Positions 1,503-27,528 are shown, counted from the stretch's first letter. The stretch: DNA of 27,916 nt from an uncultured Bdellovibrionales bacterium (GCA_964649305.1 CAZYOT010000003.1:1-27916); one strand, 5' to 3'. Translations and numbers: made by a program. The notes: a model not told the origin generated them from the sequence alone.

Positions 1503-1525
1503 TTTTTGAGGTCCGACCTCAAAAA
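1503..1525. repeat. Perfect interrupted palindrome (REP-like), GTCNGAC core
   Basis: TTTTTGAGGTC-C-GACCTCAAAAA: 11-bp arms with a 1-nt centre, 2 nt after the upstream stop codon. Confidence 0.85.
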
Positions 1526-1542
1526 ATACCTGAAATAAAGGA

Positions 1543-1669
1543 TTGTCCTGCCCATGCATCACAAAAGAGGAGGAATATCAATAAGGCTTTATAGTGTAAG
1601 CCGTTAGGCGACAGGGTTTCTTCCACTGAATAAGGTAAAAATGACTTGAATGCGGTGCTGGGTTGACAA
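1543..1669 (+). ncRNA. Candidate 6S-like (SsrS-like) structured RNA
   Basis: Hand-folded pairs: TTGTC(1543-47)/GACAA(1665-69); GCCCA-t-GCATC(1550-60)/GGTGC-TGGGT(1654-63); asymmetric central bubble (1561-68 vs 1625-53); GGAGGAA(1569-75)/TTCTTCC(1618-24); apical GGCTT/AAGCC. G-U pairs favour the + strand. Confidence 0.45.
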
Positions 1670-1692
1670 AACCGCCTTTTATCTGGTATTCT
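1663..1692 (+). promoter_or_regulatory. Sigma70-type promoter upstream of secE
   Basis: TTGACA(1663-68), 18-nt spacer, TATTCT(1687-92), with extended -10 TG at 1684-85. Confidence 0.7.
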
Positions 1693-1714
1693 CTACACAA
1701 AGTGATTCTCTATT

Positions 1715-1736
1715 AAAAGCCTTCGGGGCTTTTTTT
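1715..1736 (+). terminator. Intrinsic terminator-like hairpin between the promoter and secE
   Basis: AAAAGCC-TTCGG-GGCTTTT followed by a further T run. Confidence 0.65.
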
Positions 1737-1773
1737 AAGACCTTGAAATTCGTATTTATTTGAACCTTTTTGT

Positions 1774-1959
1774 ATGGCAAACTTTTTGCGTTTTTTGCAG
1801 GAGGCTAAAGTCGAGTTGCTCAAAGTTAATTGGCCAAATCGTGAGACTATTATCAAGTACACCATGCTGGTGATTGTAATGAGTCTTATAGTGGCGCTTT
1901 TTCTTGGGGGATTAGACTATTTTTTTAGTTACTTAGTAGAAACATTTCTTTTGAAATAA
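1774..1959 (+). CDS. secE: Preprotein translocase subunit SecE
   Basis: FLQEAKVELLKVNWPNRET motif plus one TM helix, directly before nusG. Confidence 0.95.
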   Translation: MANFLRFLQEAKVELLKVNWPNRETIIKYTMLVIVMSLIVALFLGGLDYFFSYLVETFLLK

Positions 1960-1963
1960 ACTT

Positions 1964-2509
1964 ATGGCAAAGCAAACACAACATCACGGGCGTTCATGGT
2001 ACGTGCTTCACACCTATTCAGGGTATGAGGACAACGTGACTCGTAACCTCAAACAGCGTATCGAGTCTATGGATATGCAGGATCTTATCTTTGATGTCCT
2101 TGTCCCAAAGGAAAAGAAGATTAAGATCAAGGCTGGTAAGCGCGTCGTTATCGAAGAACGCATCTATCCTGGGTACGTGCTCGTAGATATGATTGTGACT
2201 GATGCGTCATGGTATGTGGTACGTAACACTCCAAATGTGACTGGTTTTATCGGTCTTGGTACCACGCCTACTCCGATTGATCCAGCAGAAATCGAGAGTC
2301 TTAAAAAGCGTATGGGTGTGGCTGAGCCAAAATACAAAATCGATGTCCGTATTGGTGAATCAGTCAAAATTGCTGACGGACCATTTAAAGACTTTGATGG
2401 TAAGGTCCAGGAAGTAGATGATGAGAAGGGTAAGGTCAAGGTATTGGTTTCTATCTTTGGACGAGAAACCCCAGTCGAGCTCGACTTCCTTCAGATTCGC
2501 AAAGCATAA
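1964..2509 (+). CDS. nusG: Transcription termination/antitermination factor NusG
   Basis: WYVLHTYSGYEDNV, IYPGYVLVDM, VRNTPNVTGF, KOW domain, SIFGRETPVELDF. Confidence 0.98.
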   Translation: MAKQTQHHGRSWYVLHTYSGYEDNVTRNLKQRIESMDMQDLIFDVLVPKEKKIKIKAGKRVVIEERIYPGYVLVDMIVTDASWYVVRNTPNVTGFIGLGTTPTPIDPAEIESLKKRMGVAEPKYKIDVRIGESVKIADGPFKDFDGKVQEVDDEKGKVKVLVSIFGRETPVELDFLQIRKA

Positions 2510-2534
2510 CATTACTTATTAAAACGTTACTATT

Positions 2535-2960
2535 ATGGCAAAGACAGTAAAAGCGATGATCAAACTGCAGATTGATGCCGGTAAGGCCAATCCAGCTCCT
2601 CCAATCGGACCAGCTCTTGGACAGCACGGTCTCAACATTCAAGAGTTCTGTACTCGTTTCAATGATCAGACTCGTGACCGTATGGGAGATATTATTCCAG
2701 CTGAAATCACTGTGTACGAAGACCGTACTTTTGATTTCATCTTGAAGACTCCTCCGGCTTCAGATCTTCTTCGCAAGGCCGCCAAAGTCGCTAAGGGTTC
2801 TGGTAATCCTTTGAAGGAAAAGGTAGGAAGTATCACAGAAGCTCAGTTGACTGAAATTGCAGAAAAGAAATTGGAAGACTTGAACGCCAACGACGTAGAC
2901 GCTGCTAAGGAGATTATCCGCGGTACTGCTCGTTCAATGGGTGTTAAAATTGAAGGTTAA
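2535..2960 (+). CDS. rplK: 50S ribosomal protein uL11
   Basis: [25 protein letters not shown] and KTPPAS motifs. Confidence 0.99.
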
Positions 2961-2973
2961 TAATTATTTATTT

Positions 2974-3004
2974 GTGGGAGCTTATTATTAGAGCGTTTGA
3001 CCAC
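2974..3004 (+). promoter_or_regulatory. uL1-binding autoregulatory mRNA element
   Basis: GTGG-GAG...TGA-CCAC with an internal GCT/AGC hairpin, 10 nt before the rplA ATG. This matches the known L1-binding mimic of 23S rRNA found between rplK and rplA in many bacteria. Confidence 0.7.
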
Positions 3005-3014
3005 GAACAACTAT

Positions 3015-3704
3015 ATGAAACACGGTAAGAAATACAGAGGAGTAATCGAGGGTCTTGATTTGACCAAGGAATACACTCCAGAAGAAGCCATTGCTTTTCT
3101 CAAGGCTCATCCAATCGCTAAGTTTGATGAATCTTTTGAAGTTCACATGAAGCTCGGGATTAATCCAAAGAAGTCAGATGAACTTATTCGTTCTACAGCC
3201 GTTCTTCCTCATGGTACAGGCCGTAATCAGAAGGTAGCTGTAGTCACTAGTACCAAAGACAAAGAAGCTAAGGACGCAGGAGCTGATATCGTTGGTGCCG
3301 AAGATCTGATTGATGATATCAAGACTGGTAAAGTCAATCCTGGTGTAGACTTCCAGGTACTCCTAGCTACTCCCGAAATGATGCCAAAGCTTGCAGCTAT
3401 CGCTAAGATACTTGGACCAAAGGGCTTGATGCCAAGTCCAAAGTCTGAGACGGTGACAGTGAAGGTAGGAGAGGTAATTGATGTTTTGAAGAAAGGTAAG
3501 AAAGTTAGCTACAAGAATGATGATACTGCCAATGTACATCAGATGATTGGTAAGCTTTCTTTCTCAGAAGCTCAAATTCTTGAGAATTATCAGGCTTTCC
3601 GTGAGAGTATCGACAGAGTGAAGCCAGAGGCCTTGAAGGGTCGCTTGATCCGTTCTATGGTCTTCAGCTCAACTATGGGGCCTGGACTCATCGTCAAAAT
3701 CTAA
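3015..3704 (+). CDS. rplA: 50S ribosomal protein uL1
   Basis: MKHGKKYR start, AKFDESFE, LPHGTG, LGPKGLMPSPK, STMGPG. ATG 3015 is preferred over TTG 2997, which would overlap the L1 site. Confidence 0.98.
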   Translation: MKHGKKYRGVIEGLDLTKEYTPEEAIAFLKAHPIAKFDESFEVHMKLGINPKKSDELIRSTAVLPHGTGRNQKVAVVTSTKDKEAKDAGADIVGAEDLIDDIKTGKVNPGVDFQVLLATPEMMPKLAAIAKILGPKGLMPSPKSETVTVKVGEVIDVLKKGKKVSYKNDDTANVHQMIGKLSFSEAQILENYQAFRESIDRVKPEALKGRLIRSMVFSSTMGPGLIVKI

Positions 3705-3709
3705 GTCTG

Positions 3710-3733
3710 AACCCGAGTTTAACTCGGGTTTTT
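3710..3733 (+). terminator. Intrinsic terminator after rplA
   Basis: AACCCGAGT-TTA-ACTCGGGTT followed by TTT. Confidence 0.85.
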
Positions 3734-3760
3734 GCTTTTATAAAGGTATTTTGGTATTGT
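3732..3760 (+). promoter_or_regulatory. Sigma70-type promoter for dcd
   Basis: TTGCTT, 17-nt spacer, TATTGT, with extended -10 TG at 3752-53. Confidence 0.65.
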
Positions 3761-3764
3761 GTAC

Positions 3765-3802
3765 CTAACACCTATTATCTAACACCTAACACCTAGTCAT
3801 TA
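3765..3802 (+). repeat. Heptamer-period array (CTAnnnn)
   Basis: CTA at 3765, 3772, 3779, 3786 and 3793, then TTA at 3800. The unit CTAACAC occurs three times. It fills the dcd 5' leader. Confidence 0.85.
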
Positions 3803-4374
3803 TGATTCTTTCAGACCGCGACATCAAAAAAGAACTCAAAGCCGGCAATATTAGTCTTAAGCCGTATAAGCCAGAGTGCGTGCAGCCAGCCAGTGTAGAT
3901 ATTCATCTCGATAAGCACTTCTTGGTTTTTGATACTTCAAAACATTTTGTGATTGATCCCAAGGCACCCGTGCAGGATCTTATGAAGCCAGTAGTTATTA
4001 GTGAGAAGGAACCATTTATTCTTCATCCGCAGGAGTTTGCTCTGGGGTTGATACTTGAAGAGACGGGCGTATCTGACAAGTTAGTGGGTCGCTTGGAAGG
4101 GAAGAGCTCCCTTGGTCGCTTAGGTCTCATCATCCATACCACCGCTGGATACCTGGATCCGGGTAATAAACTCAAGATGACCCTTGAGCTCTACAATGCT
4201 GGACGTTTACCTATCAAGCTCTACTACAAGATGGCTATAGGTCAGATGGCTTTTGAATATCTTTCATCACCATGTGAGAGACCATACGGTAGCAAGGGAC
4301 TAAATAGTAAGTACTATGGTGATCAGAAACCAGTCGCCAGTAAGATGAGTCTCAATTTCAAAAAGAAGAAATAA
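3802..4374 (+). CDS. dcd: dCTP deaminase
   Basis: MILSDRDI, VQPASVDIHL, GKSSLGRLGL, TAGYLDPG, TLELYN and YGSKGLNSKY motifs. Confidence 0.95.
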   Translation: MILSDRDIKKELKAGNISLKPYKPECVQPASVDIHLDKHFLVFDTSKHFVIDPKAPVQDLMKPVVISEKEPFILHPQEFALGLILEETGVSDKLVGRLEGKSSLGRLGLIIHTTAGYLDPGNKLKMTLELYNAGRLPIKLYYKMAIGQMAFEYLSSPCERPYGSKGLNSKYYGDQKPVASKMSLNFKKKK

Positions 4375-4379
4375 TCCTG

Positions 4380-4408: not shown

Positions 4409-4422
4409 CTCTAAGAGGGGTG

Positions 4423-9126: not shown

Positions 9127-9143
9127 GAATTTATATTTCGCTT

Positions 9144-9184
9144 AAAGCACTTTACTGATCTTTTTGACAGTAGAGTGCTTTTTT
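9144..9184 (+). terminator. Intrinsic terminator after gatB
   Basis: AAAGCACT/AGTGCTTT plus TACTG/CAGTA stem, followed by a T run. Confidence 0.8.
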
Positions 9185-9230
9185 GTTACTTTTAGTCCAT
9201 CCTTTTTGAGGCTATATAGGGATTCAAAAC

Positions 9231-9650
9231 ATGGAAAAGAAATCATTGGGACTTGGGAAAGGATTTCAAGGAGTTGTTCTTTCTAAAGAGCATAGCAAAG
9301 AGCTGCGTCGTGGAATAGCTGAAGCGACACGTTTGCGTGAAGCTAGACGATCCGAAGCATCTAGGCGCTCTACCATGAATATTTCGCTCGATTCAGGAGA
9401 GCCATGTGCTGCTTGTGGTGGGGCTATTACCTACACCAGTACCAAAAAATTTATTGCCACTGGTGAAATCCGTTTCGGCAATGGTCCGGCGGCTGGCTAT
9501 TATCAAGAAACAAGGACAGCTTCCTGCTCTGTTTGCGCCCTTGTCTACAATCATCAGCACCAACGTTTTGCTGTTGCTCGTGAGAAAGTAAAGGCGGAGC
9601 GCAGTCCTCCCGGCGATGACTGGTTGCCACCACCAAGAAAAGTTAAGTGA
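9231..9650 (+). CDS. Hypothetical protein with a putative zinc ribbon
   Basis: 139 aa, with CAACGG and CSVCAL (two CxxC) and a basic N-terminal helix. Bounded by terminators. Confidence 0.7.
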   Translation: MEKKSLGLGKGFQGVVLSKEHSKELRRGIAEATRLREARRSEASRRSTMNISLDSGEPCAACGGAITYTSTKKFIATGEIRFGNGPAAGYYQETRTASCSVCALVYNHQHQRFAVAREKVKAERSPPGDDWLPPPRKVK

Positions 9651-9671
9651 AGTCAGACAATGATCGACATC

Positions 9672-9707
9672 CATCGGCACGAACTGTAAAATAGTTTCGT
9701 GCCGATG
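9672..9707. repeat. Long hairpin / REP-like palindrome
   Basis: CATCGGCACGAA(9672-83) / TTCGTGCCGATG(9696-9707) is a perfect 12-bp inverted repeat with a further inner stem. Confidence 0.8.
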
Positions 9708-9726
9708 ATTGTTTCAGGAAGAAAAT

Positions 9727-9754
9727 AAAAAACCTCCAGTGAAGGAGGTTTTTT
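9727..9754. terminator. Bidirectional intrinsic terminator (orphan gene and miaA converge)
   Basis: AAAAAACCTCC-AGTGAA-GGAGGTTTTTT, adjacent to the miaA stop. Confidence 0.9.
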
Positions 9755-9755
9755 G

Positions 9756-10661
9756 TTAGTCAGCGTTTTTTTCAAGGAGGGAGAGGGCTTCGGCAGAGTT
9801 CTTGATCCAGTTGATTTTCCAGCCAAGGGATTCCATACGGCGGAGCCAGGTGATTTGACGTTTGGCATAGCGATTAACTTCTCGCATGAGCTCTACTTCC
9901 ATATCAGCACGTTTGAGTTTCTTCTGAAGGAAAAGGGCGATGTATTTGTATTCAAGACCAAAAGCCTCAAGACGCTTCCAGCTGACGCCTGATTTTTCGA
10001 GGCGTTCTACCTCTTGGACCATACCTTCTTTGAAGCGATCTTTCATGCGCTTACGAATAGCTCCTTGGTGAGTATAGCGATCAAGGCTAATAGCAAAAAT
10101 CTGGTAGTTTTCATTTTTGATTTTGACATGATCTACTGGAGGGACAACACCAAGCACTTCGATAATTTCGAGAGCGCGGATGAGACGAATAGGATTTTTG
10201 CGATCGATAGTCTTGGCACGAGCTGGATCTTTTTCTTTGACCATCGCAAAAAGTTCTTCAAGAGAAAGTTTACCGAGTCGCGCGCGTAGTTCTGGGTTGG
10301 GTTTGACTCCTGGGAAAGACTGACTCTCCATGTAGGCCTGAATCCAAAAACCAGTACCACCACAAAAAATAGGAGTTTTACCCTTAGCGCGAATAGCTAC
10401 TTCAGCTACCTTGGCATCACGAAGAAAGTCGGTGACATTGTACTCAGTGTTGGGATCTACGACGTCGAGGAGGTGATGAGGGGCTTGTTTTTGCTCAGCT
10501 TTGGTCACTTTGCCGCTCCCAATATCCATGCCTTTGTAGACCTGGCGACTATCGACAGAAATAATCTCGCCATTGTATTTGCGAGCTATTTCGATAGCCA
10601 AAGACGACTTACCTGAGGCAGTTGGTCCAAGAATCACAATGGCAGGGGAGGTGTTTTTCAT
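9756..10661 (-). CDS. miaA: tRNA (adenosine(37)-N6)-dimethylallyltransferase
   Basis: GPTASGKS, ISVDSRQVYKGMDIGSGK, PHHLLDV, GGTGFWI, YAKRQITW. Confidence 0.98.
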   Translation of the reverse strand: MKNTSPAIVILGPTASGKSSLAIEIARKYNGEIISVDSRQVYKGMDIGSGKVTKAEQKQAPHHLLDVVDPNTEYNVTDFLRDAKVAEVAIRAKGKTPIFCGGTGFWIQAYMESQSFPGVKPNPELRARLGKLSLEELFAMVKEKDPARAKTIDRKNPIRLIRALEIIEVLGVVPPVDHVKIKNENYQIFAISLDRYTHQGAIRKRMKDRFKEGMVQEVERLEKSGVSWKRLEAFGLEYKYIALFLQKKLKRADMEVELMREVNRYAKRQITWLRRMESLGWKINWIKNSAEALSLLEKNAD

Positions 10662-10837
10662 ACCCAGAACTACAATTTTGACAGGGGCTAATTTTGGATT
10701 AGCTTACGGGCAAAAACGCTTATTTTTATAAAATGGATTGTCTATACAGAACACTAAAGCTCGTTAGTCAAAATCGTAGTGCTGGGCATAGAAACGAATT
10801 CTGACATACTTTGGCTTTTTTGTAAAGAGACCAAAGC

Positions 10838-14372: not shown

Positions 14373-14684
14373 AAAAACGAAATGAAAATGCGTATATCAT
14401 AGGTGTATAGTCCCTCAGTAGCCAGGGTAAACCAAAAGGCATATGCAGGGAAAATCAATGTACTCCTAGTTTACCCCGCGCGACAATTTTAAACAAGCAT
14501 TTCAAAAACTGAACATAAAACCAAAAGTAGGACTTTTTTAGGAGGATACCTAAGATGATTACAAGGTATGAGATAAAAACTTTAAAATTGTAGCCCAGGG
14601 TATAGCAGAAAAGCCAAACCCCCTCCACATGCAGTTGCACGGAAGGGGGTAAGAGGTCCAAGGACTGGGACTTGTCCTAGTAAT

Positions 14685-17597: not shown

Positions 17598-18293
17598 ATG
17601 AATCATACAGTAGATACTGCCGGCCTTGCTGCCACACTGGATATTACTATCACCAAGACAGAGCTTTATCATGAAGCTTTGACACATCGTTCATACCTCA
17701 ATGAGCATCGTGACTATGCCTATCCTCATAATGAGCGTCTCGAATTCCTTGGAGATGCCGTGTTGGAATTGGTTGTGACACGTCACTTGTTTGATACTCT
17801 CCCAAATCCAGAAGGGGAACTGACGAGTTTTCGCGCCGCGCTTGTGAATGGTGAGATGCTTTCCGTTATAGGTAAGGAACTAGGGATTGAAAAATTTCTT
17901 CTCATGAGTCGTGGTGAGGCCAAGGATACTGGTCGCGCACGTAGCTATCTTATCGCCAACGCCATGGAGGCTATCATCGGGGCAATTTATCTTGACCAGG
18001 GGTATGATGATGCCGGGCTGTTTATTGAGCGTCACATCCTTTCTCGTTTACCAGAAGTGATGGAGAAAGGACTCTACACCGATCCCAAAAGTCATTTTCA
18101 GGAGATGGCTCAGGAGAAAGCCGGTATTACACCAAGTTATGGTGTGCTTCGAGAATGGGGACCAGACCATGACCGTCATTTTGTAGCGGGAGTTTTTCTT
18201 GAGGAAGAACTGGTTGCTGAAGGCGAGGGTGCGAGCAAACAGGACGCCCAGCGAGCAGCCGCCAAGAAAGCTCTTGAAGCCAAGGGCTGGTAA
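17598..18293 (+). CDS. rnc: Ribonuclease III
   Basis: ALTHRSY, HNERLEFLGDAVLEL signature, ANAMEAIIGAIYLDQG, C-terminal dsRBD (DPKSHFQE...SKQDAQRAAA). Confidence 0.99.
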   Translation: MNHTVDTAGLAATLDITITKTELYHEALTHRSYLNEHRDYAYPHNERLEFLGDAVLELVVTRHLFDTLPNPEGELTSFRAALVNGEMLSVIGKELGIEKFLLMSRGEAKDTGRARSYLIANAMEAIIGAIYLDQGYDDAGLFIERHILSRLPEVMEKGLYTDPKSHFQEMAQEKAGITPSYGVLREWGPDHDRHFVAGVFLEEELVAEGEGASKQDAQRAAAKKALEAKGW

Positions 18294-18297
18294 TTGA

Positions 18298-18353
18298 TGA
18301 GGTTTTAGGTGATGGGTATTAGAGAAAATGTAAAATGAAAAGTTAAAAACAGT
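18298..18353 (+). repeat. Heptamer-period array in the rnc 3' UTR
   Basis: TGAGGTT TTAGGTG ATGGGTA TTAGAGA, then AAATGTA AAATGAA AAGTTAA AAACAGT, all in one 7-nt register. Confidence 0.6.
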
Positions 18354-18370
18354 CTCACAGCTGTTTTTTT
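18345..18370 (+). terminator. Terminator-like hairpin after rnc
   Basis: AAAAACAG-8nt-CTGTTTTT followed by TT. Confidence 0.55.
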
Positions 18371-18412
18371 AATTAGGTCTTGATTAAGCTGAAGGTTGTT
18401 TTTGAAGAGGTT

Positions 18413-18466
18413 CTTTTTAGAAAAAAGCTTGGTCTCTTCGTCTGACGAAGAGTTTTTTCTAAAAAG
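18413..18466. repeat. Compound palindrome, GTCNGAC core
   Basis: CTTTTTAGAAAAAA-gcttggt-CTCTTCGTC-T-GACGAAGAG-TTTTTTCTAAAAAG: perfect 14-bp outer and 9-bp inner inverted repeats. Confidence 0.9.
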
Positions 18467-18553
18467 TAGAGTGTAGTATTTCGCAGGAAAATACAAACGT
18501 CTCTGAAAAAATAATCTTTGGTTTAATTTTGAGAGTGAGTAATTTTAGGTAAC

Positions 18554-18590
18554 AAAAAACCGGTGAGGAGAGCAAATTCTCTCCTCCCGG
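18554..18590 (-). terminator. Intrinsic terminator of the minus-strand lipoprotein gene
   Basis: Minus strand CCGG-GAGGAGAG-6nt-CTCTCCTC-A-CCGG-TTTTTT. A second hairpin, CTCGGC/GCCGAG, lies at 18605-18620. Confidence 0.85.
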
Positions 18591-18624
18591 GTCTTGGGTA
18601 TTGTCTCGGCTGGTGCCGAGGGGG

Positions 18625-19140
18625 TTATTCTTCTTCGGCCGGCTCCGGCGCCAGTGCGTCGTGCATGTGCTCGAAGGCAGTAATTCTCTCAGAAAAGCTG
18701 GGTCCATAGTAGGCGGTTCCGGTTTGGGTGACGCCAGTAATGTACTTACTCCAACAGAGAGTAGCCTCATGTTCCTGGCTTATTTCGACAGTACAGAGAA
18801 GGTCTGACTTCGCCGTAACAGGCAAAATATTTGTCTTGACTCGCTCCCAGCCGGCATGGCTGAATATACCATCGACCATTCCTTGAAATTTATGGTCATT
18901 GATAGAGTAGCGAATAGATACCCATTTGGTAGTTCGATACTGAGGCACCCGTGGGTACAGACCATTGACCTTGATAGGCACGCGCTTCACGAAGTCCTGC
19001 TGGCAGGTGCCATCGGCATTGCACTTGACTTGCACGTATGAGGCCGAGTTTTTGTCGGATTGCGAGTCGGCCTTGGCGCAGCCCATGAGCAGGGTGGTGC
19101 CAGCCAGGACGGCGACGAAGAAGTGGTTGTTAAAGTTCAT
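18625..19140 (-). CDS. Hypothetical lipoprotein (171 aa)
   Basis: ATG 19140 with AGGAG 7 nt upstream. Hydrophobic leader ending in the lipobox LMG|C21, plus four more Cys. Confidence 0.75.
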   Translation of the reverse strand: MNFNNHFFVAVLAGTTLLMGCAKADSQSDKNSASYVQVKCNADGTCQQDFVKRVPIKVNGLYPRVPQYRTTKWVSIRYSINDHKFQGMVDGIFSHAGWERVKTNILPVTAKSDLLCTVEISQEHEATLCWSKYITGVTQTGTAYYGPSFSERITAFEHMHDALAPEPAEEE

Positions 19141-19208
19141 GATGGGTCTCCTGGGCTCGGAATTGAGCCTAAATTTTGCCAAAGCACCATTTAGGTACTT
19201 GACTATGT

Positions 19209-19237
19209 ATTATACGCCTATTTCTCTCTTTTGTCAA
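19209..19237 (-). promoter_or_regulatory. Perfect consensus sigma70 promoter for the lipoprotein gene
   Basis: Minus strand TTGACA(19237-32), 17-nt spacer, TATAAT(19214-09). Confidence 0.9.
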
Positions 19238-19284
19238 TGCTCTGTAGCCGAGAAACAAGCCTTGTGGCATAATGAATGTACATA

Positions 19285-19376
19285 AAAAGTAAAATATCAA
19301 AATTTAAAAAGTGTAAGAGATAAAGTTCGGTGCTTTACCGGTTTTTAATTTTGCAGTTTAATTTTTGCATTTTTGT
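19285..19376. repeat. Inverted pair of heptamer-period A-tract/T-tract arrays upstream of smc
   Basis: AAAAGTA AAATATC AAAATTT AAAAAGT, central TAAAG/CTTTA hairpin (19321-37), then TTTTTAA TTTTGCA GTTTAAT TTTTGCA TTTTTGT. Confidence 0.7.
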
Positions 19377-19377
19377 C

Positions 19378-21693
19378 GTGTATCTCAAGAAAGTTGAAAT
19401 TAACGGGTTCAAATCATTTGCCAACAAGACAGTGTTGGATTTTTCTGCCTATCCGGCAGACAAGTCGCCGACCCTGGACTCTGGCTCGAGTATTGCTCGT
19501 ACGATTACCGCTATCGTGGGTCCTAATGGCAGTGGTAAGTCCAATGTAGCTGATGCTATCCGTTGGGCGATTGGTGAGCAGTCGGTTAAGAATCTGCGTG
19601 GTAAGAAATCAGAAGATGTGATTTTTGCGGGTACTGACAAGAAGGCCCGTATGGGAAGTGCTTCGGTGACGCTTCATTTTGATAATAGTGATAAGCGTAT
19701 CCCGATTGAGTTTGGTGAAGTTTCTATTACTCGCAAAGTCTACCGTAGTGGTGAGAGCGAGTACCTGATCAATGGTTCTAAGGTCCGTCTTTTGGATATT
19801 ATCGACCTTCTTGCCAAAGCGGGTATCGGTAAGGATAGCTACTCAGTCATTACTCAGGGTATGAGTGATGCTACGCTTCAGGCCACACCGCTTGAGCGTA
19901 GGAGTATTTTTGAGGACGCTGCCGGAGTCAAGCAGTATCAGATAGAAAAAGAGCGTTCACAGAGGAAGCTTGTGAATACCGAAGAAAATCTCGCTCGTGT
20001 AGAAGCCTTGATACAGGAAATCGAGCCCCATCTCAAAGGTCTTAAGCGTCAGGCAGAGAAAGCCTCACAGGGGAAGGATGTAGCTTTGAGACTCTATGAA
20101 AAACAAGTCTTGCTTTACGGCTATCTTTGGAAGCAGTTTGAAAAAGAACGTAGCACTGTCTTGGTAGAGCGTGACACTTTGCAGAAGCGTGTATTTGAAT
20201 TGGAAGTCAGTACCAATACGCTTTCAGGTGAGATGACTGTCCTCCGAGAAGAACTTGAAGGTGAGCAAGAAGAAGTAGAGCTCGTGAAAACCCTTGATAC
20301 TCTCCGGGCTGAGCAGAATGACATCGAGCGTAAGCAGAGTGTGCTCCGCGGTAAGATGGAGATTGAGCGTGAACGTCAGAAAGAAGAGGAAGTGATTCGC
20401 ACTATCCCAGTGGATTTGCCGTATGTCCAAAAAGCCCTTGATGCAATTCGTGAGGCTCAAGGAGTACTCGTAAAAAGCATTGCTAAGTGCCAGAGTCTTG
20501 AAGAACTGGTGACGCTCAAGAAGCAAGCGGAAGCTATCCAAGAGCAATTGAGTGAGCTTAATACCAAGGCGAGTGAGGGGAGTGTCAAAGAAGTCCAGGT
20601 CATTCGTTTACCAGTGGCAGAAAAAGAGGCCAGTGATGCTCGTATCAAAGAGAGCGAAGATGAGCTCAAGGCTATGAGTGCTCGCTATGAAGTGGTCAAG
20701 AAGTCTATCAAAGACCTCGAAGAAAAAATCACTACCTCACGTGATGCTACCAAAGCCAAGCGAGACGCTTTTTTTGATAAAGAAAAAACTTGGCGTGAAA
20801 CCGAAATGGAGTTGGCTCGCAAAAAAGATGCTCTTAATGAAATCAAAGTACGTTTGGCTCGAGTGGAAGTGCGTGAAGAGGATTTGACCAAGCTTGTACA
20901 AGAAGAGTTAAACGTGGCTCCGACTACACTAACCTACAATGAGAACACGCCAGTAGAACGTGAACGCCTAGAGCGCGAGATTACGCGTCTCAAGGTAGAA
21001 GTGGAGCACATCGGGAGTATTGATCCAGAAGTGGTCCATGAGTACGAAGAAACTCAGGAGCGTTTTGACTTCCTTACGCGTGAGTCGGGTGATCTACGTC
21101 AGGCCATGGAGAGTTTGGTCACAGTGATTGCGGAAATGGACCAAAAAATTGAGCATGCTTTCAAGAAGGCTTTTCATGATATCCGTGAAAAATTTGCTGA
21201 GAACTTTAAGATTATATTTGGAGGAGGTAAGGCTGAGCTTTCGCTCGTAGCGGTCCAAAAAAGAAAGCGCAATGTCGATGCCGAGCTTGAGGGTGAAGCT
21301 GTGGACGAGGAAGTAGCTCTCGAAGAGTCTCAGTCTGGGATTGAAATCTATGCCTGCCCACCAGGTAAGAAAATTACCAACTTATCTATGCTTTCCGGTG
21401 GAGAACGTTCTCTGACGTCACTCGCCCTTCTTTTTGCCATTATTTCATACAATCCGCCACCATTTGCGGTCCTTGATGAAGTGGAAGCGGCTCTCGATGA
21501 GGCTAATTCACGCCGTTTTGGGAAGATGCTCGGAGAGCTTTCTCGAGAGACTCAGTTTATCGCCATTACTCATAATCGCGAGACTATGTCGCATGCCAGC
21601 CTCCTTTATGGCGTTACTATGGGAGCAGACGGTATTTCGCAGCTTCTTTCTGTCCATTTGGATGAAATAGAGAAAAAAGTGCTTAAGGCTTAA
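19378..21693 (+). CDS. smc: SMC-family ATPase, short (771 aa), no recognisable canonical hinge
   Basis: GTG start, YLKKVEINGFKSFA, Walker A GPNGSGKSN, Q-loop VITQG, FEDAAGV, signature LSGGERSL, Walker B/D-loop VLDEVEAALDEAN, THN. It lies in the rnc-smc-rpsP context. Confidence 0.93.
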   Translation: MYLKKVEINGFKSFANKTVLDFSAYPADKSPTLDSGSSIARTITAIVGPNGSGKSNVADAIRWAIGEQSVKNLRGKKSEDVIFAGTDKKARMGSASVTLHFDNSDKRIPIEFGEVSITRKVYRSGESEYLINGSKVRLLDIIDLLAKAGIGKDSYSVITQGMSDATLQATPLERRSIFEDAAGVKQYQIEKERSQRKLVNTEENLARVEALIQEIEPHLKGLKRQAEKASQGKDVALRLYEKQVLLYGYLWKQFEKERSTVLVERDTLQKRVFELEVSTNTLSGEMTVLREELEGEQEEVELVKTLDTLRAEQNDIERKQSVLRGKMEIERERQKEEEVIRTIPVDLPYVQKALDAIREAQGVLVKSIAKCQSLEELVTLKKQAEAIQEQLSELNTKASEGSVKEVQVIRLPVAEKEASDARIKESEDELKAMSARYEVVKKSIKDLEEKITTSRDATKAKRDAFFDKEKTWRETEMELARKKDALNEIKVRLARVEVREEDLTKLVQEELNVAPTTLTYNENTPVERERLEREITRLKVEVEHIGSIDPEVVHEYEETQERFDFLTRESGDLRQAMESLVTVIAEMDQKIEHAFKKAFHDIREKFAENFKIIFGGGKAELSLVAVQKRKRNVDAELEGEAVDEEVALEESQSGIEIYACPPGKKITNLSMLSGGERSLTSLALLFAIISYNPPPFAVLDEVEAALDEANSRRFGKMLGELSRETQFIAITHNRETMSHASLLYGVTMGADGISQLLSVHLDEIEKKVLKA
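19444..19464 (+). repeat. Short palindrome inside an SMC head loop insertion
   Basis: TCTGCC-TATCC-GGCAGA-CAAG, encoding SAYPADK within extra residues before the Walker A strand. Same arms and CAAG tail as the 21746-21783 element. Confidence 0.5.
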
Positions 21694-21700: not shown

Positions 21701-21729
21701 TTGACGGCAATCTAAAAAGGCGGTATAGT
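21701..21729 (+). promoter_or_regulatory. Sigma70-type promoter for rpsP
   Basis: TTGACG, 17-nt spacer, TATAGT. Confidence 0.85.
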
Positions 21730-21745
21730 GAACCCTGTATCCTCC

Positions 21746-21783
21746 TCCGCCTTATGAAAGAATTAAGGCTACGGGCGGACAAG
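21746..21783 (+). repeat. Palindromic element in the rpsP 5' leader
   Basis: TCCGCC(21746-51)/GGCGGA(21774-79)-CAAG with an inner GCCTTA/TAAGGC hairpin. Confidence 0.65.
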
Positions 21784-21813
21784 TATAACTTAACTGATTC
21801 CAAAGCGTAAAGT

Positions 21814-22239: not shown

Positions 22240-22244
22240 GCTCG

Positions 22245-22320
22245 CCCCGTTAGAGGCGACCAGTTACGTACTGTTTGAGGGTTTGTCTTACAAAAATTTA
22301 CCGCCTCTAATGGGGTAAAC
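22245..22320. mobile_element. Short non-autonomous inverted-repeat element (MITE/REP-like), CCCGTTAGAG family
   Basis: CCCCGTTAGAGGCG(22245-58) / CGCCTCTAATGGGG(22302-15): 13 of 14 bp with one G-U, 43-nt interior, right end GGGGTAAA. Confidence 0.7.
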
Positions 22321-22349
22321 TTGACTTCGACACTTTTCTCTGATAGGCT
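22321..22349 (+). promoter_or_regulatory. Sigma70-type promoter for rplJ-rplL
   Basis: TTGACT, 17-nt spacer, TAGGCT, with extended -10 TG at 22341-42. Confidence 0.75.
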
Positions 22350-22364
22350 AGATACACAATAAAA

Positions 22365-22415
22365 TACTCCGTAGAAACAAGGCGTACCGCCCGTCCAGTA
22401 TCTGGCCGAGGTAAA
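22365..22415 (+). promoter_or_regulatory. L10 leader (uL10/bL12 autoregulatory RNA) candidate
   Basis: CCGTAGA...AGGCG...CGCC...CTGGCCGAGGT resembles the conserved CCGUAGAC...CCUGCCGAGG frame of rplJ leaders. It lies just after the predicted TSS (~22356). Confidence 0.6.
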
Positions 22416-22487
22416 TAAGTCCTTGTGAGGAACTTCACAGCAGTCATTGGTCATATCCTGACAAAAGATAGTGCTGGGAAATTTCTC

Positions 22488-22514
22488 ATCTGCGGATTAT
22501 CCGCAGATTTTTTT
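22488..22514 (+). terminator. Attenuator terminator in the rplJ leader
   Basis: ATCTGCGGA-TTA-TCCGCAGAT followed by T6. Confidence 0.8.
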
Positions 22515-22625
22515 ATCCCGTTAGAGTTAATAGAGTCTTCAGAAATTGGTTATTGATACGAATTGATAATCATTGATAGAACTTAATTCTATACAGAGGA
22601 CCCGGTTAACTCTAACGGGATAAAA
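22511..22625. mobile_element. 115-bp MITE-like element with 20-bp perfect terminal inverted repeats
   Basis: TTTTATCCCGTTAGAGTTAA(22511-30) / TTAACTCTAACGGGATAAAA(22606-25). The interior also pairs (GTCTTC/GAGGAC; AGAAATTGGTT/AACTTAATTCT with bulges). Confidence 0.8.
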
Positions 22626-22685
22626 TTTACAAACATATCGGTCGAACAAGTATAAAAGTTCAATTTTTCGTAACAGGTTAAAAAT

Positions 22686-23772: not shown

Positions 23773-23810
23773 TTACTCACTACCACCTACCACCTAACAA
23801 CTATAACCTA
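23773..23810 (+). repeat. Heptamer-period array (CTAnnnn) in the dedA 5' leader
   Basis: TTA at 23773, then CTA at 23780, 23787, 23794, 23801 and 23808. Confidence 0.85.
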
Positions 23811-23817
23811 GTAAACT

Positions 23818-24414
23818 ATGGAATTTTTTGGAGTAAACCTCGTGGATTTAATTCGTACCGTAGGGTATGCCGGAGTGTGGGGGATTGTGTTTGCAGAGAC
23901 GGGCCTATTCTTGGGATTTTTTCTCCCAGGTGACAGTCTCTTGTTCGTGGCCGGGTTTCTTTCGGGCGGAGGGTTTTTCTCACTACCTATTATGCTCTTT
24001 GGGGTGTCGGTAGCTTCTATCCTGGGTAACTTTGTAGGCTATGAATTTGGGAAGTTTGTGGGACCAAAATTGTTTCACAAGGAAGACTCACTTATCTTCA
24101 AAAAAGAGCATTTACGTAAGGCCCAGCGTTACTATGAACACCACGGGTCCAAGACCATCTTTTTAGCTCGATTTATGCCTATTGTGAGGACTTTTGCCCC
24201 TATTGTGGCCGGTATAGCCCAAATGGATCTTAAGGTCTTCTGGTTCTATAATATCGTCAGTGGAGTGGTATGGTCTTTTACTCTTATCTTGCTTGGCTAC
24301 TACCTAGGTAGTGTCATAGACGTAGATAGGTATTTGCTTCCAATTGTCCTCCTAATTATCTTTCTTTCCTTCCTGCCGGCAATTATCACCTATATCAAAG
24401 AAAAGCGCTCTTAA
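23818..24414 (+). CDS. dedA: DedA/VTT-domain membrane protein
   Basis: FAETGLFLGFFLPGDSLLFVAG, GNFVGYEFG, IFLARFMPIVRTFAPIVAG, YNIVSG. Confidence 0.95.
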   Translation: MEFFGVNLVDLIRTVGYAGVWGIVFAETGLFLGFFLPGDSLLFVAGFLSGGGFFSLPIMLFGVSVASILGNFVGYEFGKFVGPKLFHKEDSLIFKKEHLRKAQRYYEHHGSKTIFLARFMPIVRTFAPIVAGIAQMDLKVFWFYNIVSGVVWSFTLILLGYYLGSVIDVDRYLLPIVLLIIFLSFLPAIITYIKEKRS

Positions 24415-24415
24415 A

Positions 24416-24444
24416 TTGACAGTCTCGGACATATAACATATTTT
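24416..24444 (+). promoter_or_regulatory. Sigma70-type promoter for the orphan gene at 24481
   Basis: TTGACA, 17-nt spacer, TATTTT. Confidence 0.6.
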
Positions 24445-24480
24445 GAGAGTAAGTTCTTTCTATTGGAAGGGGAAATGATT

Positions 24481-24978
24481 ATGAATACTTTCTCGAAACC
24501 AGATTTTTCTGGAGATGGCTTTGTAGTTGATTCGGCTCGAGTAAATGCTCATGAGTTATTGGGGTATGGTCATACTATCCCAGATACATATTGGCGAGCT
24601 GAAATGCTTCTGCCGAGTGAATATGAAATGAAAAATCTTCAGCTTCGAAAGCTATGGCAAAAGGATAGGCAGGTGGCATGGCCAGAGATAGACATGCAGC
24701 TTCACCTACAAGCAAATACCTTACCTATTGGTTGGCGGGTGGTACAACATCTATACTATGAGCAAGAGCTTATTCCTATTGAATGGTTGGAATATCTAGT
24801 AGGAGGAGGTTTGATTATATTTCCTTATGCTACTTGTTATCAGCGTGATGCTACTACTCACAAAGATACGGTGTGTTGCCCGGCCTTTTTTCATGATTCT
24901 GGGGTAATAGATGCAAGAGCGGTCAATCGTTTTACAGCACCATCAATGGGGTTGATTGCGGTGTATCATAAGACATGA
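24481..24978 (+). CDS. Hypothetical protein (~165 aa)
   Basis: AAGGGG SD-like motif 8 nt before ATG 24481 (the start could also be 24475). Own promoter and a downstream terminator. Confidence 0.7.
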   Translation: MNTFSKPDFSGDGFVVDSARVNAHELLGYGHTIPDTYWRAEMLLPSEYEMKNLQLRKLWQKDRQVAWPEIDMQLHLQANTLPIGWRVVQHLYYEQELIPIEWLEYLVGGGLIIFPYATCYQRDATTHKDTVCCPAFFHDSGVIDARAVNRFTAPSMGLIAVYHKT

Positions 24979-24992
24979 TTATTCAGAAAAAG

Positions 24993-25030
24993 AAAAAAGC
25001 GCGTTTGCCCAAAGGGGTGGCGCGCTTTTT
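24993..25030. terminator. Bidirectional terminator
   Basis: AAAAAGCGCG / CGCGCTTTTT stem between convergent genes. Confidence 0.85.
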
Positions 25031-25052
25031 CAATATAAGGGAGGCTTCGAAT

Positions 25053-25598
25053 TTAGACAGCTTGTTCCTTGAGGTAAGCGAGCATAGTATCTGCATCACT
25101 GACTTCAAATGGATCAGTCTGACAGTTGTCGCTGTAACCTTCTTCAGCAAAGACCTGCTTGATTTCCCCGTCCTCTACAAGCATAGAGTAACGCCATGAA
25201 CGGTCACCGAATCCAAGGTTTTCTTTCTTCACGAGCATGTCGATACCACGAGTGAAATCAGCATTACCATCTGGAAGCATTTTGACCTTAGTGACACCCA
25301 AGTCATCAGCCCACTTCTTCATGACAAAGGCGTCATTGACGGAGAGGCAGTAGACCTCATCGACACCAAGACCTTTGATCTCATCATACTTGGCTTCGTA
25401 GCCAGGAGCATGAGTAGAAGAGCAGGTAGGAGTGAAAGCTCCTGGTAGACCAAAGACGACAATCTTTTTACCACCAAAAATTTCTGAGCTACTGACATCC
25501 TGCCAGCGGTAGGGGTTTGGTCCTTCTACGGACTCATCGCGTACACGTGTTTTGAAGGTGACTTCAGGCACACGGCTACCTACGAGTTTATGTGACAT
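25053..25598 (-). CDS. Peroxiredoxin, Prx5/type II family
   Basis: LPGAFTPTCSSTH peroxidatic motif, LSVNDAFVM, LPDGNADFT, RSWRYSMLV. Start at ATG 25598. Confidence 0.95.
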   Translation of the reverse strand: MSHKLVGSRVPEVTFKTRVRDESVEGPNPYRWQDVSSSEIFGGKKIVVFGLPGAFTPTCSSTHAPGYEAKYDEIKGLGVDEVYCLSVNDAFVMKKWADDLGVTKVKMLPDGNADFTRGIDMLVKKENLGFGDRSWRYSMLVEDGEIKQVFAEEGYSDNCQTDPFEVSDADTMLAYLKEQAV

Positions 25599-25608
25599 AG
25601 GTTTGCTT

Positions 25609-25663
25609 GCCCGGTGAAATTGCTCTTGAAAGCACCGACCTTGTCGGCATTTCACGGGGTAAA
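25609..25663. repeat. Y-shaped palindromic element in the peroxiredoxin 5' leader
   Basis: Outer CCC(G)GTGAAAT / ATTTCACGGG, inner hairpins TGCT/AGCA and CCGAC/GTCGG, right end CGGGGTAAA as in the 22245 and 22511 elements. Confidence 0.75.
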
Positions 25664-25700
25664 TATTAGGAAATTAGTGTCTCTTAGGGAGACTATATCT

Positions 25701-25729
25701 ATGATAGAGGTTAGAAGATTCACAGTCAA
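25701..25729 (-). promoter_or_regulatory. Sigma70-type promoter for the peroxiredoxin gene
   Basis: Minus strand TTGACT(25729-24), 17-nt spacer, TATCAT(25706-01). Confidence 0.8.
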
Positions 25730-25734
25730 AAAAA

Positions 25735-25743
25735 TGGTATAAT
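25735..25743 (+). promoter_or_regulatory. Extended -10 promoter for the 25773 gene (divergent)
   Basis: TG-G-TATAAT. Confidence 0.65.
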
Positions 25744-25772
25744 AATATAAAATAAATAATTTATATTTAAAT

Positions 25773-26426
25773 ATGAAACGAATACCAGCTTTAGGTATAA
25801 TTATCCTTACTGTAGGAGTGACTATAGGAGTTATCGGAAATACTTATTCTCAAAAAATAACATCACCCGTAAGTGATGAAGAGGCAGTAAAGCCAGTTAT
25901 TCAAACAAAGGCTGTGGCTATAAAGACAAATATAAACCAATATCAAAATGCTAAGATTGGATTTGCGGTAGCTCTTCCAGAAACGTGGATGGGAATGGTA
26001 CAAAATGAGTATGATGGATCTATCGCAAATATTCTTTTCTATGATAAAAAATATGACTCAGACATAAAAGGGGAGAATAATCCCTTATTGGCCTTGATTA
26101 TAAAAAAAGACCCATATATTAGTTTAAGTGTGAATAACAGTGGGTTTATAAAAAAAGCGGATTTTGATATTAAGAGCTGGGTTTCCTCTCAGATAGGTGG
26201 ACCACAAGGAGGTCAGTTAGATACAAAGCTTCTTTCATGGGAAGAAAGAGTAACCACTGCCGGTCAGAAATTTTATGTATACACGAACGTTATTCAGTCA
26301 GATGGTGAGGCAAAAAGATACGGTGCAATATGGATTTCTAATGGAAAATTGTTCGAGCTTCAGGCGGACAATGAGAGTGAGCGAGGTGCAATAGAAGAAA
26401 TAGCTAAAAGCTTTAGGACACAATAA
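25773..26426 (+). CDS. Hypothetical membrane-anchored or secreted protein (217 aa), possibly PsbP-like fold
   Basis: N-terminal hydrophobic anchor and YQNAKIGFAVALPETW motif. The gene is visibly AT-rich. The fold call is an inference. Confidence 0.75.
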   Translation: MKRIPALGIIILTVGVTIGVIGNTYSQKITSPVSDEEAVKPVIQTKAVAIKTNINQYQNAKIGFAVALPETWMGMVQNEYDGSIANILFYDKKYDSDIKGENNPLLALIIKKDPYISLSVNNSGFIKKADFDIKSWVSSQIGGPQGGQLDTKLLSWEERVTTAGQKFYVYTNVIQSDGEAKRYGAIWISNGKLFELQADNESERGAIEEIAKSFRTQ

Positions 26427-26452
26427 AGAATAATTAGATTACATAATTTTTT

Positions 26453-26803
26453 ATGGAAACATACAAAGGAGCCTGTCATTGTCACGCAGTTACATTTGAA
26501 GTCGATATGGAGCTCACCAAAGCCATGGAGTGTAACTGTAGCCACTGTTATCTCAAGGGATTCTTGCTTGCTTTTGTGCCGGAAACTACCGTGCGTATTC
26601 TCACCGGTGAAGACATGCTCACCGAGTACCGCTTCAACAAGGAGCACATTGCTCATCTGTTCTGTAAAGTCTGTGGCGCTCAGCCGTTTGGGCGGGCCAA
26701 TGATGCCGAAGGCAATATGACCTACGCTATCAATATCCGTTGCCTGGAAGGCGTGGAACCAGAGGCTCTCGAGATCAATAAGTTTGACGGCAAAAACATG
26801 TAA
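26453..26803 (+). CDS. GFA/CENP-V family zinc protein
   Basis: GACHCHAVTF, CNCSHC, HLFCKVCG, YAINIRCL. Confidence 0.93.
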   Translation: METYKGACHCHAVTFEVDMELTKAMECNCSHCYLKGFLLAFVPETTVRILTGEDMLTEYRFNKEHIAHLFCKVCGAQPFGRANDAEGNMTYAINIRCLEGVEPEALEINKFDGKNM

Positions 26804-26805
26804 AC

Positions 26806-26833
26806 AAAAAACCCACCGGAAGGTGGGTTTTTT
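26806..26833. terminator. Bidirectional terminator
   Basis: AAAAAACCCACC-GGAA-GGTGGGTTTTTT. Confidence 0.9.
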
Positions 26834-26848
26834 GAACGAGACTAATGC

Positions 26849-27046
26849 TTACGCACGAGCAACGTTGGTAGCTGCCTGTCCTTTAGGACCGTCAGTGATT
26901 TCAAAAGTGACATTGTCACCAACTTGAAGCTCAGTGAAGGCTACTCCTGAAAGTTCATTAGCATGAAAGAAAAGATCTTTGCTCTCACCTTCGCGAGAGA
27001 TAAATCCAAATCCTTTGTCTGTGAGGGTTTTGATTGTACCGTTCAT
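26849..27046 (-). CDS. Cold-shock domain protein (65 aa)
   Basis: MNGTIK, RNP1 KGFGFI, RNP2 LFFH, VTFEI...GPKG..A.NV. Start at ATG 27046. Confidence 0.97.
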   Translation of the reverse strand: MNGTIKTLTDKGFGFISREGESKDLFFHANELSGVAFTELQVGDNVTFEITDGPKGQAATNVARA

Positions 27047-27134
27047 AGTTTTTTGTGGGCTATAATTTCTCTGAAACTCGACTACTTTTTCATTCTGCGT
27101 TAATTGCATGTCCTTACCATGACACACTCCGGGG

Positions 27135-27143
27135 ATAATAGCA
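27135..27143 (-). promoter_or_regulatory. Extended -10 promoter for the cold-shock gene (~80-nt leader)
   Basis: Minus strand TG-C-TATTAT. Confidence 0.55.
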
Positions 27144-27144
27144 A

Positions 27145-27528
27145 CTAAAATTGGAGCCTTTTGGCCGGAAAGTCCTTGATACGGCCTTTTTCATCAAGTT
27201 TGATACCCTCCTTTTTGTAGAGCTTGAGGCGCTTTTCTTCATATTCTGGGCTCATCCAGACTCGGCCATCGCTATAGACGATACGGTGGAAAGGGATACC
27301 CTTCTCGCCATTTTGGTAGGCTCTGGCTAAGATAGATGTCACGCTCATAGCTGCCATGTTAGATTGGCCGCCCCCGCCTGCAACGCTATGCGTAGCATTG
27401 CGGGCAGGACCACAAGCCCGGGCAATATCCCCGTAGGTAGAGACTCTACCAGATGGAATAGAAAGAGCCAAGCGGACGACGCGTTCGCTAAAGGTAGGGG
27501 AGAGTTTTTTGGTAGGGATTTTTTTCAT
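27145..27528 (-). CDS. Alkyltransferase-like (ATL; MGMT DNA-binding family) protein
   Basis: FSERV...IPSGRVSTYGDIA and IPFHRIV (catalytic PCHR Cys replaced by Phe). It carries a 12-aa insert after the first HTH helix. Confidence 0.88.
   Translation of the reverse strand: MKKIPTKKLSPTFSERVVRLALSIPSGRVSTYGDIARACGPARNATHSVAGGGGQSNMAAMSVTSILARAYQNGEKGIPFHRIVYSDGRVWMSPEYEEKRLKLYKKEGIKLDEKGRIKDFPAKRLQF
27373..27408 (-). mobile_element. 36-nt palindromic element inserted in frame in the ATL gene
   Basis: CCTGCCCGCAATGCTACGCATAGCGTTGCAGGCGGG encodes exactly codons 41-52 (PARNATHSVAGG). It has a 9-bp hairpin GCAATGCTA/TAGCGTTGC and GC-rich arms. Confidence 0.75.

Follow-up and report, generated by a model that had tools for sequence, protein, structure and literature searches.

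The 27,916-nt stretch of DNA analysed here (the window) is contig C3 of an 871.5-kb assembly in 98 contigs with 43.7% G+C. Its genes include secE, nusG, a dTMP-synthesis cluster, miaA, rpsP, rplJ-rplL, and cspA, together with those for RNase III, SMC, peroxiredoxin, and an MGMT-like DNA-binding protein. The genome is ultra-small (~0.87 Mb, ~90% coding) and belongs to Candidatus Moraniibacteriota (Patescibacteria). Very small hairpins and inverted-repeat-ended elements lie among these genes, and repeats of the same kinds accompany genes for GIY-YIG nucleases elsewhere in the genome. Nine inverted repeats had been marked in an initial annotation, which sorted eight of them into three groups, (a) to (c), and all nine are present where it placed them. 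They are listed in Table 1 with two elements that were overlooked and one contextual feature. Elements are named in the text by the position at which they were first noted, which can differ by a few nucleotides from the boundaries in the table.

Table 1. Coordinates of inverted-repeat elements and one contextual feature in the window.
Coordinates	Strand	Feature	Position and details
1503..1525	.	23-nt palindrome, best read as REP-like	T-run, GAGGTC stem, A-run; 3 nt after the stop of gene 967-1500
9667..9712	.	Lone hairpin, 17-bp stem	3′ end of variable cassette 9129-9726, which contains the open reading frame 9231-9650
10662..10789	-	Mini family-E element	CCCAGCACTAC-type arms; inserted at the miaA start codon, CAT/ATG triplet present twice; overlooked in the initial annotation
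14474..14600	.	127-nt mini with variant family-E arms	CCCTGGGCTACAATTTTAAA-type arms; upstream of a 1206-aa gene; overlooked in the initial annotation
18413..18466	+	Ordinary intrinsic terminator	8-bp GC stem 18434-18452 plus TTTTTT (terminator scan), nested in an A/T outer stem
19444..19464	+	CAAG-tailed 21-nt hairpin	In frame in SMC; SAYPADK added ahead of the Walker A strand
21740..21783	+	CAAG-tailed 44-nt element	rpsP leader, downstream of the -10 box and upstream of the start codon; promoter 21701-21729
22240..22319	+	Family-A mini	Arms 22245-22258 / 22302-22315, TAAA tail; downstream of the rpsP stop, upstream of the -35 box of the L10-leader promoter
22320..22514	+	Conserved promoter and L10 (rplJ) leader; context rather than an element	Ends in attenuator terminator 22488-22508
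22516..22620	.	Family-A mini	16-bp arms, TTTA/TAAA flanks; between the L10-leader attenuator and the rplJ start
25607..25665	.	Variant family-A element, 59 nt	Arms CCCGGTGAAAT / ATTTCACGGGG, TAAA tail; peroxiredoxin 5′ leader
27373..27408	-	36-nt GC-rich hairpin, family C	In frame in the MGMT-like DNA-binding protein; adds PARNATHSVAGG (12 aa)

We compared the window with four syntenic congeners (G047, G015, G010, and G007; 70–90% DNA identity), of which G047 and G015 are the nearest (RplJ protein 97–98% identical), with at least 99% alike contigs from three other studies (X2–X4), and with a freshwater strain from a further independent study (X5), whose contigs are mostly 90–99% alike. Wider searches covered 49 congeners and 151 genomes of the order. 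Clean empty sites occur in the congeners for 19444, 21746, 22245, 22511, 25609, and 27373, and likewise for 10662 and 14474. Strain X5, taken to be ~95–99% alike, also lacks four of these insertions: 19444, 21746, 14474, and, with weaker support, 25609. The initial annotation had proposed a search for empty sites; such sites exist both in close relatives and in an independent strain. When window-specific indels relative to G015 were listed without prior selection, the majority of the insertions of 20–200 nt were hairpin elements of this kind. Their targets are 5′ leaders, gene junctions, one start codon, and, twice, exactly in-frame positions. Contigs of X2–X4 hold the elements that they span, at 99% identity or more, which rules out an assembly artefact. 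Contig ends, considered as hidden repeat copies, show only a mild excess (3 versus 0.7 expected).

With RNA or DNA parameters the nine hairpins fold better than mononucleotide shuffles (z −3.4 to −9.6). The exception is 21746, which has 6-bp arms and a 22-nt loop and folds weakly (z −0.6 to −2.2). Searching Rfam with the whole window at E values up to 1 returned no leader, riboswitch, or repeat family that fits any element; the sole matches were a sub-threshold cspA hit on the csp gene and noise. ARAGORN detected no tRNAs in the window, and no hairpin is explained in this way.

Group (a) proved to be a true family. Family A is defined by CCCCGTTAGAG arms and a TAAA tail; ACGGG[GA]TAAA occurs 19 times in the genome, against ~0.8 by chance as we estimate from length and composition, and CCCCGTTAGA is the most over-represented non-simple 11-mer (21 copies). 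Paired CCCCGTTAGAG...CTCTAACGGGG arms delimit 14 elements, all of them intergenic, with lengths of 28, 29, 71, 103–109 (eight elements), 126, and 278 nt (two elements). Within the window, 22245 is a ~77-nt insert missing from all four syntenic congeners, and the 22511 site is empty in G047, G015, and G007. Both are carried by X3, X4, and X5, in X5 on one contig, where a C at 22311 turns a G-T pair of the 22245 stem into G-C. The third member of group (a), 25609, belongs to a CCCGTGAAAT-armed variant whose arm type recurs at C15:8173, at C18:7868, and after the RNase III gene in G007. It is missing in all four congeners and apparently absent from X5, whose contig joins 25605 to 25722; this joint is thin, with 23 letters on its shorter side.

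The 22511 element is one of the eight ~105-nt copies, which have only their arms in common. Their interiors (75–81 nt, mostly AT-rich) are no more similar to each other than shuffles are. A rod-like structured interior of 22511 and its sisters was considered and rejected, as interiors trimmed of their arms are no more stably folded than shuffled sequence. Searched against the 49 congeners, the 22245 and 22511 interiors gave no match; only the L10 leader did. Between the 22511 element and the rplJ ATG, at 22621-22683, lie ~50 further bases that G047 and G015 lack; they end in CGTAACAGGTTAAAAATATG, which looks like a solitary right arm from a family-A-like element, set directly against the start codon, and the congener G021 carries GTAACGGGATA at the equivalent position.

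Group (b) consists of real repeats but mixes two families, one of 36-nt hairpins (family C) and one with a CAAG tail. To the latter belong 19444 and 21746, which have the common pattern TCYGCC...GGCRGACAAG, with arms of ~6 nt and C-G in place of one T-A pair. Of the 49 congeners, 15 have the pattern, versus 2 for a reversed control, mostly as 19–21-nt hairpins and in a few cases as ordinary coding sequence. The seven residues that 19444 adds to SMC are absent from G015, G047, G010, and G007, X5 omits the 21 nt, and the protein is otherwise unchanged nearby. At 21746, G015, G010, and G007 have CTGTA joined directly to TATAAC, and X5 runs from 21739 to 21784. In two congeners (loci L087, G020:C33, and L094, G021:C22), a CAAG-tailed mini hairpin comes immediately after a tRNA-like 5′ end, GCGGGGTAGAGCAGT, and more TTTACCCGCC-type hairpins come next, an arrangement that suggests stacked insertions in the D-loop region of a tRNA.

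Family C, to which 27373 belongs, has ~10 genomic copies of 36–37 nt. Its 12-residue insert is absent from G015 and G010, and the protein alignment shows no other change nearby. Many X2–X4 contigs end exactly at 27373 or 27408, and many match 27373-27408 alone and then diverge, as a dispersed repeat would. The initial annotation placed two elements inside coding sequence and cited the in-frame palindromes of Rickettsia; 19444 and 27373 are both in frame, and neither peptide occurs in the relatives. Family E has sister minis of 129–137 nt on C1, C18, C34, and C91. At 10662, G015 and G047 have TTTTTCAT followed by AGAAA without interruption; the 14474 element is missing in G015, and an X5 contig joins 14462 to 14600. 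Like the family-A minis, those of family E (127–137 nt) have common arms and unlike interiors. In genome-wide counts, 9672 and 18413 are single-copy.

No mobiliser had been noticed near the hairpins. This holds for the window, whose proteins include neither a GIY-YIG nor a Y1-transposase gene product, but not for the genome, in which both GIY-YIG and RAYT-like candidates (similar to transposases associated with repetitive extragenic palindromic, REP, sequences) are found on other contigs. Contig C4 carries two identical 278-nt units, CCCCGTTAGAGACT to AGTCTCTAACGGGG, whose sole reading frame encodes an 87-aa protein, P0001. PF01541 spans its residues 1–71 (E 5e-16), and there is no second domain. 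The reading frame runs through the right arm of the unit, which supplies the C-terminal four residues (SLTG), and stops at the TAA just beyond the arm. The inserted unit comprises 285 nt: TTCA, the 278 nt from CCCC to GGGG, and TAA. The two units are placed among an exonuclease gene, uppP, and folD. At the first junction, G047 (UppP 95% identical) reads TAG-AT-ATG, whereas this genome reads TAG-(TTCA, 278 nt, TAA)-AT-ATG; a stop codon directly precedes the unit, the next ATG begins 2 nt beyond it, and no target sequence is duplicated. G047, G007, and G010 have nothing inserted at the second junction. The 14-nt perfect arms of these units are found again in 12 other paired elements, and C8:2476-2601 is a deletion derivative in which both gene ends are kept.

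Seven intact single-domain GIY-YIG genes (P0001 and six small paralogues) and additional fragments are present in the genome. Group (a) arms flank two of them; at others, family-E arms or GC-rich hairpins like 27373 take that place. A second subfamily on C11, C19, and C26 encodes proteins of 98–102 aa followed by TAGTGCTGGG-type arms, and the four residues next to the initiator methionine (PSTT or SSTT) are read from its left arm. Its arms are those of the 129–137-nt minis; the gene-bearing form on C11 encodes a 98-aa GIY-YIG protein. The genes on C31 and C47 adjoin family-C hairpins, at distances of 20–42 nt. On C10, a broken copy comes after a CCTGCCTGCCGGCAGGCAGG palindrome and a duplicate of the 5′ portion of a tRNA gene. 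This palindrome, perfect around its CCTGCCTGCCGGCAGGCAGG core and 20–28 nt long, occurs in ~9 copies, including C4:16246, C7:9265, C10:14586, and C25:5102, often in the apparent D-loop region of type-II tRNA sequences, between GGTGGTGGAAT and GGTAGACA.

The arrangement extends beyond this genome. A P0001 homologue is encoded in 108 of the 151 genomes of the order, and 22 of 30 inspected loci have 13–20-nt inverted repeats, TTCA-CCCYRT...AYRGGG-TAA, around the gene. The inner arm sequence co-varies on both sides: the closest homologues (61–71% identical) mostly have GTTAGA, more distant ones mostly GTTAAAT. Four further loci of the 30 have CCCGCCCGC-type hairpins. The search for genes flanked by the same motifs, also proposed in the initial annotation, thus found them elsewhere in the genome, and these genes together with the empty sites make a trans-acting mobiliser plausible. 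Candidate genes for such a mobiliser can now be named.

These observations support an explanation that we judge probable, though well short of assured: at least eight very small mobile elements, built as hairpins or ending in inverted repeats, have recently inserted in the window, and the GIY-YIG and RAYT-like genes wrapped in the same repeats on other contigs are likely their movers. Gene-less copies would be moved in trans by the GIY-YIG nucleases. These may recognise the folded arms in single-stranded form, whether at a replication fork or in a leader under heavy transcription, much as Ssn does; Ssn proteins are single-domain GIY-YIG nucleases of ~94 aa that cut single-stranded DNA only, next to a specific hairpin repeat (Chenal et al., Nat Commun 2025, PMC11893778). 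By analogy, the nuclease would cut at the folded arms, and host replication or repair could then complete excision and insertion. Each mini has a unique interior and is single-copy, and for this reason we infer that conservative movement (cut and paste) or import from the population is more likely than copy-and-paste bursts. Identical ends, near-constant length, and unique interiors fit poorly with such bursts and are compatible with conservative movement, population import, or an unknown length rule.

A bolder version of this explanation, which we put forward as doubtful, makes the 87-aa GIY-YIG protein the only protein of a self-contained ~285-nt transposon that acts on single-stranded hairpin ends, moves conservatively, and also moves gene-less hairpins of 20–135 nt in trans, in frame into essential genes. 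Were it true, this would be a new class of transposase and the smallest autonomous mobile element in bacteria.

Several points weigh against a role of the nucleases. GIY-YIG enzymes are hydrolases with no known strand-transfer step and could not finish transposition alone. The link between nucleases and hairpins comes from genome comparison, and the activities of P0001 and its paralogues are putative; the solved structures nearest to P0001 are UPF0213 proteins (1zg2, E 5e-8). The published SRM motif of the Ssn system is not enriched in the genome (3 occurrences versus 0–5 in ten first-order shuffles) and is missing from the window. Only two of five congeners with family-A minis, all draft assemblies, have a GIY-YIG protein 48–52% identical to P0001. 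No donor copy for the mini interiors was found in this genome or in the 49 congeners, and no gene-bearing copy of the CAAG-tailed family is known. Finally, the flanks are inconsistent: CAT is duplicated at miaA, 4-nt direct repeats flank four family-A minis, and the C4 copies have none.

Alternatively, the hairpins could be the primary mobile or target units, with GIY-YIG genes as homing-endonuclease-like passengers that invaded their loops, and would be spread by a RAYT-like Y1 transposase or by slippage or repair at palindromes. Identical family-A arms enclose unrelated filling of very different length (2–9 nt on C1, C63, and G025; elsewhere 43, 75–81, ~100, and 250 nt), which looks like insertion into loops; GIY-YIG enzymes are classic homing nucleases, and this genome has RAYT-like genes. 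But the palindromes at those genes differ from the family-A elements in arms and design, the two full-length C4 copies are identical and lie at non-homologous junctions, and the empty sites contain no hairpin. Moreover, in 22 of the 30 loci the right arm supplies the last codons and the stop of the GIY-YIG gene, an arrangement that argues for a long-standing unit rather than for repeated chance invasions. We regard passengers in pre-existing hairpins as unlikely.

It is very improbable that all families are REP-like sequences moved by RAYT-like HUH Y1 transposases. Such genes are present: two are intact (C5 and C8; HFH motif; PF01797 at 32.7 and 27.3 bits), and a third is truncated where contig C53 ends. 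All three have palindromes of their own, 19–23 nt long, at their flanks, and some of these palindromes also lie in frame inside RAYT-like genes (C5:4924, C5:5200, and C8:1865), adding two LRSLASKS peptides to the C5 protein and GHPVS to that of C8. The 1503 palindrome is built in the same way, and in G007 two copies of its type lie ~45 nt upstream of a RAYT-like gene 66% identical to the one on C8. However, arms of group (a), family E, or family C were not seen at any RAYT-like gene and instead bracket or adjoin GIY-YIG genes. A GTAG tetranucleotide beside the hairpin is conserved in classical REPs; none stands next to 1503 or any group (a) or (b) element. The analogy with REP and RAYT drawn in the initial annotation thus fits 1503 and no other element.

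Least probable of all is that the hairpins serve the host as cis-regulatory structures (terminators, attenuators, RNase III or stability sites) native to the rpsP, rplJ, and peroxiredoxin leaders. In its favour, 21746, 22511, and 25609 do have, as first described, a conserved promoter on one side and the start codon on the other, the genes whose 5′ leaders they occupy are highly expressed, they fold strongly as RNA (−42 kcal/mol for 22511), and the window also encodes RNase III. Against it, the same leaders in the congeners and X5 lack the elements while promoters, L10 leader, and attenuator are conserved, the same arms recur at unrelated loci and around a nuclease gene, two elements are in coding sequence, and no Rfam family matches. 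A role at the RNA level had also been suggested; since close relatives do without the elements, an obligate one is unlikely.

If the nuclease link holds, host repair and a nuclease of fewer than 90 residues suffice to sustain the mobility of several hairpin families in a genome that ranks among the most reduced known in bacteria. Ssn and hairpin-repeat systems would then be extended from repeats of unknown origin to demonstrable insertion polymorphism, and the pairs found here would offer natural enzymes and targets for single-stranded DNA tools. The leaders of ribosomal-protein operons are remodelled by the hairpins, and proteins such as SMC gain peptides from them. Elements of this kind explain many small strain-specific indels, spurious extensions of reading frames, and odd peptide inserts in Patescibacteria assemblies.

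Group (c) did not hold together as a family: its common GTCNGAC centre is trivial, and of its members 1503 is a REP-like palindrome and 18413 an intrinsic terminator without a second copy. The 1503 core, TGAGGTCSGACCTCA, or variants with one mismatch occur 5–6 times in the genome, three of them 3–6 nt past a stop codon, and beyond this genome only in the near relatives G047 and G007. The spacer around 1503 cannot be aligned with G015. A terminator was rejected for 1503, since an A-run follows the stem on both strands and a T-run on neither, and it is best read as a REP-like element. The long stem of 18413 arises where the A-tract of the terminator pairs with its T-tract; it sits in a variable 1.08-kb spacer (18293-19378) that is missing in G015 and X5. 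The stem of 9672 is not followed by a T-run, and a separate, conserved terminator lies at 9724-9757; the 598-nt cassette around it, 9129-9726, is replaced by 31 nt in G015. Both 18413 and 9672 are, we infer, ordinary hairpins carried within strain-variable gene cassettes.

Four such gene-sized cassettes are not in G015 (9129-9726, 18293-19378, 24408-25059, and 25744-26451), two of which are skipped by X5 contigs. Their cargo comprises a 139-aa Cys-rich reading frame, a probable secreted protein of 185 aa behind a perfect TTGACA-17-TATAAT promoter, a 171-aa reading frame, and a PsbP-like protein. The gene for the last is slotted between a promoter and the GFA-family gene formerly driven by it, and X5 apparently lacks it, again across a thin joint with 23 letters on the shorter side. 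Short heptamer-like arrays (CTAACAC or CTACCAC type) at 3760-3800 and 23776-23795 differ from G015 in copy number. The over-represented words AATGCTGATGG and GATGTGATTAT (C8, C60) derive from a giant repeat protein with, by eye, FG-GAP-like DLNADGK repeats and are not mobile elements.

The region at 22320-22514 is 93% identical to G015, more than its flanking genes. The stem of its attenuator (TCTGCGG...CCGCAGA and a T-run) is kept genus-wide, with compensatory changes judged by eye, and the leader, which follows the promoter and is ~170 nt long, matched no Rfam family. It is probably a lineage-specific L10 leader.

Among known kinds of hairpin, intrinsic terminators (GC stem and T-run) account for 18413 but not for 1503 or 9672. 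Rickettsia palindromic elements resemble 19444 (SMC) and 27373 (MGMT-like protein) as palindromes that lie in frame in genes of a reduced genome and leave the reading frame intact. They measure ~100–150 bp, in contrast to 21 and 36 nt here. Miniature inverted-repeat transposable elements such as Correia/NEMIS and ERIC are, like the minis, gene-less, 70–135 nt long, bounded by terminal inverted repeats, located in leaders, and able to change transcripts; as with these elements and their insertion sequences, gene-bearing and gene-less copies of families A and E have the same terminal inverted repeats. The partner element here, however, encodes only a GIY-YIG nuclease and no DDE or other known transposase, the minis have only ends and length in common rather than their interior, and target duplication is inconsistent.

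With REP/REPIN-RAYT and IS200/IS605 systems the elements share short, mostly intergenic palindromes, a candidate mobiliser gene within its own repeats, a single-strand hairpin as likely substrate, and several sites without target duplication; the genome does contain RAYT-like genes, and in G007 one such gene has the 1503 type at its flank. They differ in that groups (a) and (b) and family E are tied to GIY-YIG rather than HUH proteins and lack GTAG, and in that GIY-YIG enzymes form no covalent DNA intermediate.

A full-text survey of the literature found such elements undescribed in Patescibacteria, the Ssn paper aside. The closest published system is that of the Ssn nucleases and their hairpin repeats, in which ssn genes are flanked by genome-wide hairpin repeats (NTS/SRM) in a layout that the authors remark is like that of an insertion sequence (PMC11893778). 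The likeness is one of domain, size, and layout: a single-domain GIY-YIG protein of ~90 aa, and a gene flanked on both sides by a hairpin-capable repeat that is scattered through the same genome, mostly between genes, and oriented by a non-palindromic tail (TAAA or CAAG here, CGTCA in Ssn). Copies number tens here and hundreds in Ssn, the SRM motif shows no enrichment here, and insertion polymorphism and insertions on a start codon or in frame are found here, whereas none are described for Ssn. In families A and E the gene lies between two halves of one palindrome, in contrast to the Ssn gene between two complete hairpins; family C is nearer to the published layout.

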